A stretch of DNA of 32,000 bases from Myxococcales bacterium. GTDB taxonomy: Bacteria; Myxococcota_A; Polyangia; Polyangiales; Polyangiaceae. The stretch is from the NCBI GenBank assembly GCA_005777185.1, contig SXNL01000208.1:1-32000 (forward strand), given 5' to 3'. Below, piece by piece: positions 2,418-7,488 of the stretch; the stretch's first letter is position 1, and every line of letters starts with the position of its first letter. The position numbers were made by a program, and so were the translations under genes. Below the pieces are notes generated by a model. The model searched no databases. It was not told where the DNA came from and saw nothing but the letters and a program-made list of their open reading frames with translations.

Positions 2418-4496
2418 ATGGGCATCGAGCGGGAAAGGGGTACCACGGTCGCGGGAAAGTACGTGATCGAGGCCCGCATCGGCGTCGGCGGAATGAGCGA
2501 GGTGTACCGGGCGCGCAACGAGCTCCTCGATCGGGCGGTCGCGATCAAGTTCCTCCTCCCGGAGCTCGCCACGGACGCCCGCGCCGTACGCCGCTTCATG
2601 AAGGAGGGCCAGCTCGCCTCCAAGGTCCGTCACCCGAACGTCGTCGACATCCTCGACGTCGACAAGGACCCGACCGGCGTGCCGTTCATGGTCCAGGACT
2701 ACCTGCGTGGGGAGGACCTCGACGCGCACGTGCTGGTGAAGGGCGGACGCCTCACCGCGGACGAGGCCCTGGAGATCCTCACACCCATCGCGGAGGCCCT
2801 CGGGTACGCCCACGGGTGCGGCGTGGTCCACCGTGACGTGAAGCCGGCGAACATCTTCCTCTCCCTCGAGCACGGCAGGTGCATCCCGAAGCTGGTGGAC
2901 TTCGGCATCGCCCACATCCACACGAAGAACGCGACCGCCACCGCCACCGCCGTCGACACCGGCACGCCCGCGTACATGTCGCCGGAGCAGATCTACTCGC
3001 CGGCGGATGTGGGCCCCCCGACGGACGTGTGGGCGTTCGGCGTCGTGCTCTACGAGGTCCTCACGGGCCTCATCCCCTTCACGGGGAGCACGTTCGCGGA
3101 CATGTTCGTCCAGATCGCGAAGGCCGCGCACCACCCCGTGCGGCACTACGCCAAGGACGCGCCCGCCTCGATCGAGGCTGTGATCGAGCGTTGCCTCAGG
3201 AAGAACAAGGCCGACCGGTACCCGACGGCCTCGGAGCTGGCCGCCGATCTCAACCGGGCGCGCTCCGCGAAGGACGAGGCGAGGATCGCTTCCGTCTCCA
3301 AGCACACGCCCAAGCCGGCCGTCGACAGCGGGCGCCCGGAGGCCGAGTCGCCCCCCGCCGCTGCCGCGAGCGCGCCGGGGCTCTCGCCCGCCCTCGAGGG
3401 CGACGCCGTGAAGCCGCCCGCCCAGCCGAAACAGCTCTCCGTCCCCGAGCTCAAGCGCCCGCTGCGCGGGCAGACGGTGGACGTCCCGGACCTCGCCCCA
3501 CGCGAGATCCGTTCGGATCGGGCCCGCTCCCCCCCGCCGATGCCGGCCGCCGAGGCGCTCGATCAGCCCTTCGACGAGGCGCTGATCGAGCGCACCTCGC
3601 GCGCGCCCGCGACTCCGGCGCCCGGTTCGGCGAAGCAGACCTTCTACAAGCCCCCGATCGCGGCGGAGACGCACGCGCCCGCCGCCCCGCCCGCCCCACC
3701 GCCCGCCAGCGCGGGGAAGGCCGAGCGCGGCGCGGACATGGACGACCTGAGCGCCGAGGACGACCAGCCCCTCGACATCGACGTGGCGCCGCGCTCCGCG
3801 CGCGAGAAGCCCACCGTCGTCACGAAGGGGATGGGCCCCATCTCGGCGCAGAAGGTCTCGGTCCCCCAGGCTCCGCCGCAGAGCGGACGCGACGTGAGCG
3901 AGCTCTCGCTCGGGGCGGCGCGGGCGTCCGCACCGTCGGGGGGGAAGAGGGCCGCAGGCCCCGCGCCCGTGCCGACCTCCACGACGGTGCTCCCCACGCC
4001 CAAGGAGTGGGGGTTGTTCGCGGGTGCGTTCGCGGGCGCTATCGTGTTCCTGTTCGCGGTGGTCCACCAGCCGCTCCACAAGGCGTGGGTGGCCTCCACG
4101 AGCGGGCATTCCATCGTGGCGAGCGGCGTGGCCGCGCTGATGCTGTTCGTGATCGCGGCCGGCCTGGGCTGGACGGCCTCGCAGGGTGGCGTGTCGAAGT
4201 CGGTCTGGGTGAGCGCCGGCGGCTGCCTCGCCGGCACCATCCTCCTCGTCATCGTGGCGTTCTCCATCGACGAGGCGGCGAAGGAACCGCCCGACGTCGC
4301 GCACGTCTTGCCCTACTGCATGCCCCTCGTCCCCCTCGGCGTGGCGTGGGAGATCTTCGAGCGCGCGCGCGACGAGTGGGTCGAGCGGCGCAAGGTCTCG
4401 ACGGGCATGGTGCTGTCCGCCCTGATGGGCCTCTGCGTGTTCCTCTTCTTCGAGTGGTCCCCGCTCGCTGCCGCGCTGGCGTACGTCTCGAAGTAG
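2418..4496 (+). CDS. Hanks-type Ser/Thr protein kinase with Pro/Ala-rich linker and polytopic C-terminal membrane domain
   Basis: ATG at 2418 (MGIERERGTTVAGKYVIEARIGVGGMSEVYRA..) avoids overlap with the divergent gene. Kinase motifs present: G-loop GVGGMSEVY, AIK lysine, HRDVKPANIF (about 2829-2852), DFGIA, and GTPAYMSPEQ. After about 270 aa comes a linker of about 250 aa rich in P, A and S, then about 5 hydrophobic helices (WGLFAGAFAGAIVFLFAVV.., SIVASGVAALMLFVIAAGLGW.., GGCLAGTILLVIVAFSI.., GMVLSALMGLCVFLFFEW..). Confidence 0.95.
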   Translation: MGIERERGTTVAGKYVIEARIGVGGMSEVYRARNELLDRAVAIKFLLPELATDARAVRRFMKEGQLASKVRHPNVVDILDVDKDPTGVPFMVQDYLRGEDLDAHVLVKGGRLTADEALEILTPIAEALGYAHGCGVVHRDVKPANIFLSLEHGRCIPKLVDFGIAHIHTKNATATATAVDTGTPAYMSPEQIYSPADVGPPTDVWAFGVVLYEVLTGLIPFTGSTFADMFVQIAKAAHHPVRHYAKDAPASIEAVIERCLRKNKADRYPTASELAADLNRARSAKDEARIASVSKHTPKPAVDSGRPEAESPPAAAASAPGLSPALEGDAVKPPAQPKQLSVPELKRPLRGQTVDVPDLAPREIRSDRARSPPPMPAAEALDQPFDEALIERTSRAPATPAPGSAKQTFYKPPIAAETHAPAAPPAPPPASAGKAERGADMDDLSAEDDQPLDIDVAPRSAREKPTVVTKGMGPISAQKVSVPQAPPQSGRDVSELSLGAARASAPSGGKRAAGPAPVPTSTTVLPTPKEWGLFAGAFAGAIVFLFAVVHQPLHKAWVASTSGHSIVASGVAALMLFVIAAGLGWTASQGGVSKSVWVSAGGCLAGTILLVIVAFSIDEAAKEPPDVAHVLPYCMPLVPLGVAWEIFERARDEWVERRKVSTGMVLSALMGLCVFLFFEWSPLAAALAYVSK

Positions 4497-4497
4497 G

Positions 4498-6237: not shown

Positions 6238-6243
6238 GCGGAC

Positions 6244-7488
6244 GTGGCCCGGGTGCGGCGCCGCCTCGAGCTGGTCGACCAACACCGCCCGGCGTACGTC
6301 GTGTGGGAGCTGACGCTCGCGTGCGACCAGCCCTGCACCCACTGTGGCTCCCGGGCGGGCGACGCGCGACCGAGCGAGCTGTCGACGGAAGAGGCGCTCG
6401 GCGTCGTGCGCGATCTCGCCGCGCTCGGCGCCGAGGAGGTGGCGCTCATCGGTGGCGAGGCCTACCTCCACCCCGGCTTCCTCGACGTCGTGCGGGCCAT
6501 CGTGGCGGCGGGCATCCGGTGCACGATGACGACCGGCGGGCGCGGGATCGACGCGCCGCTCGCGCGATCGATCGCGGCCGCAGGTATCTACAGCGTCTCC
6601 GTCAGCGTCGACGGCCTCGAGCCCACCCACGACCTCATGCGCGCCCGGCGCGGCAGCTTCCGCGCGGCCACCGGCGCGCTCCGCCACCTGGCGGAGGCCG
6701 GCGTTGCGATCACGGCGAACACGAACTTCAACCGCCTCAACCTCGCCGAGGTCGAGGCGCTCTACGACACGCTGAGGGCGCTCGGGATCGAGAGCTGGCA
6801 GGTGCAGATCACCGCGCCGCTCGGTCGCGCGGCGGACCGGGCCGACCTCATCCTCCAGCCGTGGGATCTCCTGGAGCTCCTCCCGCGTATCGCCGCCGTC
6901 AAGCGCCGCGCGTTCGACGACGGCATCCTGGTGATGCCCGGCAACAACCTCGGGTCTTTCGGGCCCGAGGAGGCGCTCCTCCGATCGGTCACGCGCGACG
7001 GGACCGACCACTTCCAGGGGTGCCTCGCGGGGCGCTGGCTCATGGGCATCGAGTCCAGCGGCGACGTGAAGGGGTGCCCCTCGCTCCAGAGCGCGCACTA
7101 CGTGGGCGGCAACCTGCGCACGCGCCCGCTGTCCGATATCTGGCGCGACGCGCCCGAGGTGGGCTTCACGCGCGCGCGAACGGTCGACGATCTGTGGGGC
7201 TTCTGCCGCACGTGTCCGTTCGCGGAGGTGTGCATGGGCGGATGTAGCTTCACGGCCCACTCGCTGCTCGGGAAGCCGGGCAACAACCCCTACTGCCACC
7301 ACCGCGCGCGCACGCTCGCGCGCGAGGGCAGGCGTGAGCGGCTCGTTCCCGTGCGCGCGGCGCCTGGCACCCCCTTCGACAGCGCGCTCTTCGACGTCGT
7401 GATCGAGCCGATCGACGCGCCAGACCCTGCCCCGCGCCGCCCGCTCGAGCTCGTCCAGCTCCGCCGAGCGCGGCCTGATGTCAAATAA
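6244..7488 (+). CDS. Radical SAM enzyme with C-terminal SPASM domain (PqqE/MftC/anSME-like peptide or protein maturase)
   Basis: GTG start 6 nt after the protease stop. The CxxxCxxC cluster is CDQPCTHC (6322-6345), followed by a GGE-like ALIGGEAYL. The C-terminal Cys-rich SPASM signature is ..GDVKGCPSLQ...WGFCRTCPFAEVCMGGCSFTAH...NPYCHH. G/C-ending codons throughout. Confidence 0.9.
   Translation: MARVRRRLELVDQHRPAYVVWELTLACDQPCTHCGSRAGDARPSELSTEEALGVVRDLAALGAEEVALIGGEAYLHPGFLDVVRAIVAAGIRCTMTTGGRGIDAPLARSIAAAGIYSVSVSVDGLEPTHDLMRARRGSFRAATGALRHLAEAGVAITANTNFNRLNLAEVEALYDTLRALGIESWQVQITAPLGRAADRADLILQPWDLLELLPRIAAVKRRAFDDGILVMPGNNLGSFGPEEALLRSVTRDGTDHFQGCLAGRWLMGIESSGDVKGCPSLQSAHYVGGNLRTRPLSDIWRDAPEVGFTRARTVDDLWGFCRTCPFAEVCMGGCSFTAHSLLGKPGNNPYCHHRARTLAREGRRERLVPVRAAPGTPFDSALFDVVIEPIDAPDPAPRRPLELVQLRRARPDVK

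Follow-up and report, generated by a model that had tools for sequence, protein, structure and literature searches.

We analyzed a 32,000-nucleotide (nt) stretch of DNA from a Myxococcales bacterium (contig SXNL01000208.1, positions 1 to 32,000; called the window here), in which genes for a Hanks-type Ser/Thr kinase, an HtrA-like S1C serine protease and a radical S-adenosylmethionine enzyme with a SPASM domain (rSAM) follow each other almost without gaps. A first-pass annotation of the sequence had proposed these three genes as a functional system lacking a visible substrate peptide. We favor another reading, to which we assign a probability of about 0.6: the triad is a recent positional operon in one uncultured Polyangia lineage, into which a maturase was relocated, and the substrate of this maturase is encoded elsewhere. 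We advise against listing this operon among new three-gene systems; its tight spacing alone was misleading. What appears to be new is a clade of rSAM/SPASM enzymes, encoded in at least 447 stretches in a scan of one genome per species, that is almost universally paired with an unannotated, lipoprotein-like protein carrying a Zn ribbon. This pair is a concrete and testable enzyme-substrate candidate, and the small protein is not encoded in the window.

The kinase gene (2418..4496, + strand; ATG at 2418, TAG at 4494-4496) encodes 692 amino acids (aa), the protease gene (4498..6237, + strand; ATG at 4498, TAG at 6235-6237) encodes 579 aa, and the rSAM gene (6244..7488, + strand; GTG at 6244, stop codon at 7486-7488) encodes 414 aa. 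The kinase and protease genes are separated by 1 nt and the protease and rSAM genes by 6 nt (junction sequences gaagTAGgATGcgc and cggTAGgcggacGTGgcc). The base composition of the window is ~70% GC, and the GC content at third codon positions (GC3) is 0.93-0.94 in all three open reading frames (ORFs) alike, which is a coding-type composition. All coordinates and both gaps given in the first-pass annotation were thus borne out. The spacing suggests that the three genes are co-transcribed and co-translated.

A small ORF with coding-like GC3 was found neither in the 67-bp intergenic region upstream of the kinase gene, nor between the genes, nor in the region 7489-10094 downstream of the rSAM gene, so the remark that no substrate peptide is visible also stood. 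The search for a precursor covered every ORF of at least 30 aa in 7400-10100, a GC3 screen of the whole window, and searches with a hidden Markov model (HMM) and with regular expressions. None of these returned a candidate, and a cis-encoded precursor peptide was therefore rejected.

The rSAM protein matched the Pfam families Radical_SAM (PF04055; residues 22-176, 72.5 bits) and SPASM (PF13186; residues 260-325, 27.9 bits), both above their cutoffs. It contains the CxxxCxxC motif of radical-SAM enzymes as C27-x3-C31-x2-C34, and its SPASM cysteines are C260, C278, C321-x2-C324-x5-C330-x3-C334 and C351. The best NCBIfam models were TIGR04103 (446.7 bits against a cutoff of 725; residues 14-396 aligned to model positions 2-387 of 412) and TIGR03913 (402.3 bits against 591.75; residues 13-394). 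Much lower scores were obtained for the heme biosynthesis model AhbD (TIGR04545; 142.4 bits against 500; residues 19-353 aligned to positions 2-337 of 339) and for the anaerobic sulfatase maturase model (47 bits). Every NCBIfam equivalog model scored under its cutoff, and assignment to a known named family was rejected. Among proteins of solved structure, SkfB and PqqE are the closest in sequence. Together, the best models and the solved relatives support the view that the enzyme is of the peptide- or protein-modifying SPASM type. It would be a maturase of a kind already known, from an undescribed clade.

To define this clade, we used protein-database matches and a genome scan. Past the protein's own entry and one relative with 86% identity, the database homologs among the matches listed were 66-72% identical over the full length. 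Their named sources are Archangium, Cystobacter, Pyxidicoccus, Corallococcus, Labilithrix, Polyangiaceae and other myxobacteria. In the scan with one genome per species, 447 stretches were found to encode rSAM relatives, and 80 loci with 10-kb flanks were kept; two further loci fetched by exact-protein look-up completed a set of 82 (L001-L082). Over its full length, the window rSAM shares 63-72% identity with the 80 genome loci across Myxococcia and Polyangia. In an alignment of 15 orthologs from both classes, with a mean column identity of 73%, all cluster-binding cysteines and a C-terminal tail of ~60 residues were invariant, and the window rSAM keeps every invariant residue. In a neighbor-joining tree, the window rSAM and its close relative at L087 nest with L003, L004, L018, L007, L025 and L024, which all bear the small partner described below. 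By its sequence, the window rSAM is an ortholog within a Myxococcota-wide, uncharacterized and highly conserved clade and does not form a distinct subfamily. The clade seems to be conserved like a housekeeping gene while lying outside the named housekeeping families. In a literature search for TIGR03913, TIGR04103, "GDL motif" and SPASM together with myxobacteria, nothing relevant was found besides the link to DUF1842/1843 (see below).

Clustering of neighboring ORFs over the rSAM loci revealed a single recurrent partner, which is a small protein, with the second most common family present in only eight loci. An HMM of the small protein matched 77 of the 82 loci with 25-83 bits, scores that are partly circular for the training loci, though far above noise. 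In 72 loci the partner gene is found upstream of the rSAM gene at a distance of no more than 1.5 kb, divergently in 50 of them and co-directionally in 22. One to three copies are present per locus, with two or three copies in tandem at L001, L026, L046, L078 and L081. The partner proteins are 80-130 aa long (for example, those encoded at L051 9387-9715 in Sorangium cellulosum So ce56 and at L002 7462-7821). The N-terminus contains a Zn ribbon (CxxCxGF…CPxC), followed by a basic linker and a Gly/Ala-rich hydrophobic stretch of typically ~15-20 residues, which ends in a lipobox-like T-L-M-A-C. After the helix there is an invariant Tyr-Gly, usually followed by xPPC (YGxPPC), and then an acidic tail with many Asp, Gly and Thr residues, in some cases with MopE-type metal-binding motifs. 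Invariant in the family are the four Zn-ribbon cysteines, an Ala, the Tyr and the Gly. Variants without a Cys adjoining the YG mostly have a Cys after small residues, a few residues upstream. AlphaFold2 (AF2) predicted a Zn-ribbon-like N-terminal module with confidence (predicted local distance difference test [pLDDT] 81-87); in the model, residues 34-53 form a helix and the tail is disordered. Three representative partner proteins had no Pfam or NCBIfam match above threshold. Nearly all of the best 120 of 446 database homologs are annotated as "hypothetical protein", with PF11617 as the sole precomputed Pfam domain. In its layout the partner resembles a signal peptide of the lipoprotein type in which the Zn ribbon forms a long n-region in the cytoplasm, which would make the partner a putative lipoprotein.

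The partner and the enzyme diversified together. The motif subtypes of the partner (TLMACYG, TLSACYG, or a Cys with xYGxPC 2-6 residues after it) go with the rSAM clades, and one metagenome-assembled genome encodes two rSAM paralogs (L009, L049), each with its own partner subtype. Subtype tracking, tandem copies and paralog-specific subtypes are as expected of a substrate-maturase pair. Adjacency, co-diversification and tandem copies therefore lead us to infer that the partner is the substrate of the rSAM.

The partner could also be a membrane anchor, a regulator, or a protein delivering Fe-S or Zn, for an enzyme with some other substrate and with the window rSAM working without it, a reading we consider unlikely. 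The predominance of divergent gene pairs would fit such a role, as would the fact that the conserved part is the N-terminal Zn ribbon with the helix and not a C-terminal core, the tail being variable and disordered. Moreover, some rSAM loci lack a partner nearby: the window, L087, L045, L050 and L071. However, the partner-less loci besides the window and L087, which are five in number, are scattered across the neighbor-joining tree, pointing to relocation rather than to a partner-independent subclade. The tandem copies also speak for a substrate, and so does the invariant Tyr-Gly, which has flanking Cys and Pro residues and stands at a fixed distance from the end of the helix, both features being typical of substrates.

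In the window, the partner is absent. The HMM, run at full sensitivity over six frames of the 32 kb, gave a best score of 6.9 bits (E 0.17), and a regular expression for a Zn ribbon followed by a YG motif had no match in the same 32 kb. We suggest that the window rSAM is an ordinary ortholog that became separated from its partner gene. Only one small ORF with a zinc ribbon occurs in the window (21167-21343, + strand; MATCKECDNEVDALVTVKVGTKKRKMCEDCADRL…, ~58 aa). It encodes a stand-alone CxxC…CxxC ribbon and lies divergent from the PspA/IM30 gene, between pspA (20299-21159, - strand) and the lipoamide dehydrogenase gene (21368-22777, - strand). This ORF was not matched by the partner HMM and has neither a hydrophobic helix nor a YG motif.

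Heme biosynthesis genes stand near the rSAM gene in five of the 82 loci, which belong to two lineages (Labilithrix-like and Pyxidicoccus); hemE is present in all five, with hemH and hemY in some. At L023, hemE lies 19 nt downstream of the rSAM gene and is followed by hemH. At L001, hemE-hemH-hemY lie ~1.8 kb downstream (11044-14350), at L002 and L022 hemE is located ~575 nt upstream (L002 6411-7457), and at L026 it is ~6 kb away. This proximity could reflect chance synteny, or it could hint at a link to tetrapyrroles. An enzyme of the AhbD/NirJ type, such as an oxygen-independent coproheme decarboxylase, would have no peptide substrate, and the small protein would be unrelated to its chemistry. 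The end-to-end alignment to the AhbD model and an identity of 63-72% across two classes, which is typical of housekeeping genes, agree with such a role. However, the AhbD score falls far short of its cutoff while the peptide-maturase models reach 447 and 402 bits, the 32-kb window contains no heme gene, and a tetrapyrrole enzyme would not be expected to have a co-diversifying partner, in part as tandem copies, in 77 of 82 loci. We therefore regard a heme enzyme as very unlikely. The first-pass annotation had named membership in a housekeeping family as an outcome that would speak against a dedicated system; the enzyme instead belongs to an uncharacterized clade with its own small partner.

The second outcome it had named, a gene neighborhood that is not conserved in relatives, is what we observed. 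Using tblastn, we detected the S1 domain of the protease, its C-terminal domain, and the linker and membrane domain of the kinase in none of the 82 rSAM loci. A generic kinase catalytic domain was present within 10 kb in eight of the 82, which is plausibly due to chance in the kinase-rich Myxococcota. At L071 and L053, a kinase gene lies directly downstream of the rSAM gene. These kinases are ~30-34% identical to the window kinase in the catalytic domain only; they are not orthologous to it, and a recurrent rSAM-kinase link was rejected.

The view from the protease was the same. We compared six independent protease lineages with 57-74% identity to the window protease (L083/84, L085, L086, L089, L090-92 and L093-95). 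Neither an rSAM gene nor a kinase gene adjoins the protease gene in any of them, with the contig of L089 ending inside the gene; this locus (57% identity) was the single match of a metagenome scan made with the protease as query, and it is uninformative about synteny. What follows the protease gene varies: a GDSL lipase gene in L083/84, nothing in L085, a PGA_cap gene in L086, an RCC1-like gene in L090-92 and a response regulator gene in L093-95. The lack of conservation of the triad and this variable slot after the protease point to a lineage-specific juxtaposition. In Labilithrix, the rSAM gene (L001) and the protease gene (L086) are at different sites.

The upstream side was rearranged as well. 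A gene for an ICMT/PEMT-like membrane methyltransferase (1076..2350, - strand; Pfam ICMT, 28.4 bits) precedes the kinase gene in the window. Its ortholog is located directly upstream of the protease gene, on the same strand, in L083/84, L085 and L090-92, and an H+-PPase gene is found near the protease gene in L085, L086 and L093-95. The ICMT-like gene of the window has the opposite orientation, with the kinase gene between it and the protease gene. Compared with the relatives, the inverted gene in 1-2350 and the inserted kinase gene indicate local rearrangement on both sides of the protease gene.

The order protease-rSAM recurs only in L087 and L088, two short metagenome contigs (from JGI samples 3300044511 and 3300044510) with a 3-nt gap between the genes. 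Their identity to the window is 92-96% for the protease and 84-86% for the rSAM, and synteny at this distance is uninformative about function.

These data bear on the possibility that the triad is a true module, in which the rSAM modifies the beta-sandwich domains of the protease or a substrate processed by it, under regulation by the membrane kinase. In favor of a module are the gaps of 1 nt and 6 nt, the recurrence of the protease-rSAM pair in L087/L088, and the fact that all products are linked to the envelope (lipobox-like Cys24 of the protease, 4-5 membrane segments of the kinase). The QhpC/D/E precedent, in which an rSAM/SPASM enzyme and a serine protease act on a small exported subunit, can also be cited for it. 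However, adjacency was seen only at 84-96% identity; it was observed neither at the 82 rSAM loci nor in the other protease lineages, of which there are six. The protease is equally conserved where the rSAM gene sits elsewhere, as in Labilithrix. Furthermore, the window rSAM is unchanged at the positions invariant in its family and has not diverged further than the relatives that bear the partner, which argues against a new substrate. A functional module of the three genes thus found no support, and we consider it quite unlikely. Among the targets proposed by the first-pass annotation, a peptide encoded elsewhere is favored; the C-terminal region of the protease and the kinase linker are not.

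According to our favored reading, that of a relocated maturase, the protease gene would have remained at its ancestral site, defined by the H+-PPase gene, the ICMT-like gene, the protease gene and a long noncoding stretch. In the window lineage, the rSAM gene would have come to occupy the variable slot after the protease gene, and the kinase gene would have been inserted on the upstream side, next to the ICMT-like gene in its present inverted orientation. The cytoplasmic rSAM would recognize the Zn ribbon together with the signal-anchor or helix part of the partner as a leader-like handle. It would then modify the partner by radical chemistry, at the invariant Tyr-Gly/Cys motif or close to it, ahead of export. 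The substrate gene would be present in this genome outside the window. The protease and the kinase would be bystanders encoded on the same transcript, or at most additions specific to this lineage.

Several points weigh against this reading. The gaps of 1 nt and 6 nt in the window and of 3 nt in L087/L088 suggest co-expression, and a functional link among the three genes that is specific to this lineage is conceivable. The search for the partner of this genome, which covered the 32-kb window, did not locate it, and the lineage may have lost the partner, with the rSAM acquiring a new target. The partner might act as a regulator or membrane anchor, its status as a substrate being suggested by adjacency, co-diversification and tandem copies. 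A divergent orientation, as in 50 of the 72 pairs, is unusual for precursors of peptides that are made on ribosomes and modified after translation (RiPPs) and their maturases. Since the motif is placed at the outer end of a helix resembling a signal peptide, any modification would have to precede export. Finally, hemE, hemH and hemY occur near the rSAM gene in five loci from two lineages.

A more far-reaching version is tentative, and we see it as possible rather than probable. The enzyme and its partner may represent an undescribed, Myxococcota-wide system of protein modification in which a cytoplasmic Zn ribbon, carried by an unusually long signal peptide, serves as the leader by which the maturase is recruited. 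A modification such as a Cys-Tyr or Tyr-C crosslink would be made at the invariant Tyr-Gly next to the lipobox-like Cys, and export and lipidation would come afterwards. In the window lineage, the maturase would have been drawn into an envelope operon that also encodes an HtrA-like lipoprotein protease and a membrane kinase, and these two may process the modified product or control it.

We compared the window genes with known systems. TIGR04103 (rSAM_nif11_3, nif11-class peptide radical SAM maturase 3) resembles the window enzyme in combining rSAM and SPASM domains with no detected RiPP recognition element. Unlike members of this family, the window rSAM scores far below the cutoff of 725, it comes from a myxobacterium, its orthologs pair with a Zn-ribbon membrane protein, and there is no small ORF of coding-like composition beside it (the presence of a Nif11 peptide being judged by ORF composition). 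TIGR03913 (rad_SAM_trio, GDL motif peptide-associated) is similar in that the maturase is defined by a small conserved gene cassette. The partners in that cassette are DUF1842/DUF1843 proteins (PMC12114271). Neither domain was detected in Pfam scans of 19 window genes or of the three representative partner proteins.

In the Qhp system, which matures quinohemoprotein amine dehydrogenase, the rSAM/SPASM enzyme QhpD crosslinks the small protein QhpC in the cytoplasm prior to export, and the serine protease QhpE acts in the same pathway. QhpE is subtilisin-like, and QhpC is not known to have a Zn ribbon or a lipobox-like Cys. Two features recall this system, namely the adjacency of the protease and rSAM genes and the action that we propose on a small protein destined for export. 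In contrast to it, no QhpA, QhpB or QhpC genes were apparent, the window protease is of the S1/HtrA type, and the partner has a Zn ribbon and a lipobox-like Cys. QhpD was absent among the 25 NCBIfam matches listed for the rSAM, a list that did not come from a search aimed at QhpD similarity. The AhbD/NirJ enzymes (TIGR04545, TIGR04051/54/55) share the fold, the end-to-end AhbD alignment and, for some orthologs, a position beside hemE, hemH or hemY. They differ from the window rSAM in the model score (142.4 vs. 500 bits), in the lack of heme genes in the window and in the identity of the conserved neighbor, which is the small protein.

The domain descriptions in the first-pass annotation, namely a kinase with a linker and a membrane end, an exported S1 protease with an unassigned C-terminal region, and an rSAM/SPASM enzyme, agreed with Pfam and hydropathy analyses. 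In the protease, the Pfam domain Trypsin_2 covers residues 95-219 (80.5 bits), and residues ~260-579 have no assignment. The protein consists of a signal peptide with Cys24, an S1 domain (~40-260), a helical linker and two beta-sandwich domains (~284-402 and ~425-541). Among 61 homologs, H110, D140 and S214 (GFSGGP) were invariant and C24 was nearly invariant; the protease is probably a lipoprotein. The AF2 model (pLDDT 84.2) has the two beta-sandwich domains where HtrA proteins carry PDZ domains. The top Foldseek matches were the protease domains of DegS, Deg1 and HtrA1 (E ~1e-11), in a search with the full model that is dominated by the S1 domain, and sequence matches to the PDB span residues 85-262 only. 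The protease thus shares with HtrA, DegP and DegS the S1C fold, the His-Asp-Ser triad and export. It differs from them by the beta-sandwich domains and by the lack of a PDZ domain in the Pfam search, and all NCBIfam HtrA-type models scored far below their cutoffs (TIGR02037, 55 bits against 416). The family comprises 266 full-length proteins with 50-93% identity, mostly from Labilithrix and Polyangiaceae (Polyangia).

In the kinase, the Pfam domain Pkinase spans residues 15-273 (161 bits) within a catalytic domain at ~8-304. It is followed by a Pro/Ala-rich linker (~300-530; 17% P, 19% A) and a C-terminal domain (~530-690) with four to five hydrophobic segments according to hydropathy. The NCBIfam model PknB_PASTA_kin (NF033483) matched the catalytic part only, with a score of 273 against a cutoff of 450, and PASTA repeats are missing from the protein. 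These results indicate a generic Hanks kinase and not a member of the PknB family. The C-terminal membrane domain is rare: 28 representatives were found in 1.84 billion proteins, mostly as the C-termini of proteins of 420-790 aa.

Downstream of the rSAM gene, the region 7489-10094 (~2.6 kb) is free of genes and shows no codon-position bias of GC. It had no match in an Rfam search at E <= 1 or in a tRNA search. Comparison with relatives by tblastx gave fragmentary, frame-switching alignments. A coding function was rejected due to the missing GC position bias, the frame switches and indels that are not multiples of 3. Three colinear blocks with similar spacing (7621-7774, 8578-8648 and 9718-10039) are conserved in L083, L085, L090 and L093/95; the homologous blocks are located at L083 10515-12626, L085 10042-12306, L090 4431-6632, L093 12602-14852 and L087 1473-1848. 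The first block contains two adjacent DnaA-box-like sites (7626-7646), the only two in the window with at most one mismatch, and behind them a stretch rich in T, hexamers resembling -35 and -10 elements, and a 5' hairpin that is invariant. Predicted hairpins in the second block have compensatory changes at 15 of 33 pairs, in an alignment of only five sequences. The third block ends with a covarying GC-rich hairpin and a U-run (-32 kcal/mol, z = -3.4), corresponding to an intrinsic terminator on the + strand. An origin of replication (oriC) was rejected, since there are only two DnaA-box-like sites and no enrichment at two mismatches. The region is a candidate gene for a noncoding RNA of ~2.3 kb on the + strand (core ~7710-10035) that would be conserved in uncultured Polyangia. 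If real, this RNA would be unusually large for a structured RNA of bacteria. It lies apart from the question of the kinase, protease and rSAM genes.

Two other ORFs in the window were noted. The gene at 10095-11756 (- strand) encodes a 553-aa protein rich in Pro, Lys, Glu and Ala, with many tandem "KAEPPKP/VEPPK" repeats, a C-terminal hydrophobic anchor and no Pfam match. The ORF at 17849-20737 (- strand) has 963 codons, no Pfam domain and a GC3 of 0.84, which is below that of its neighbors. Its 5' end overlaps the pspA ORF call, and its boundaries are tentative.

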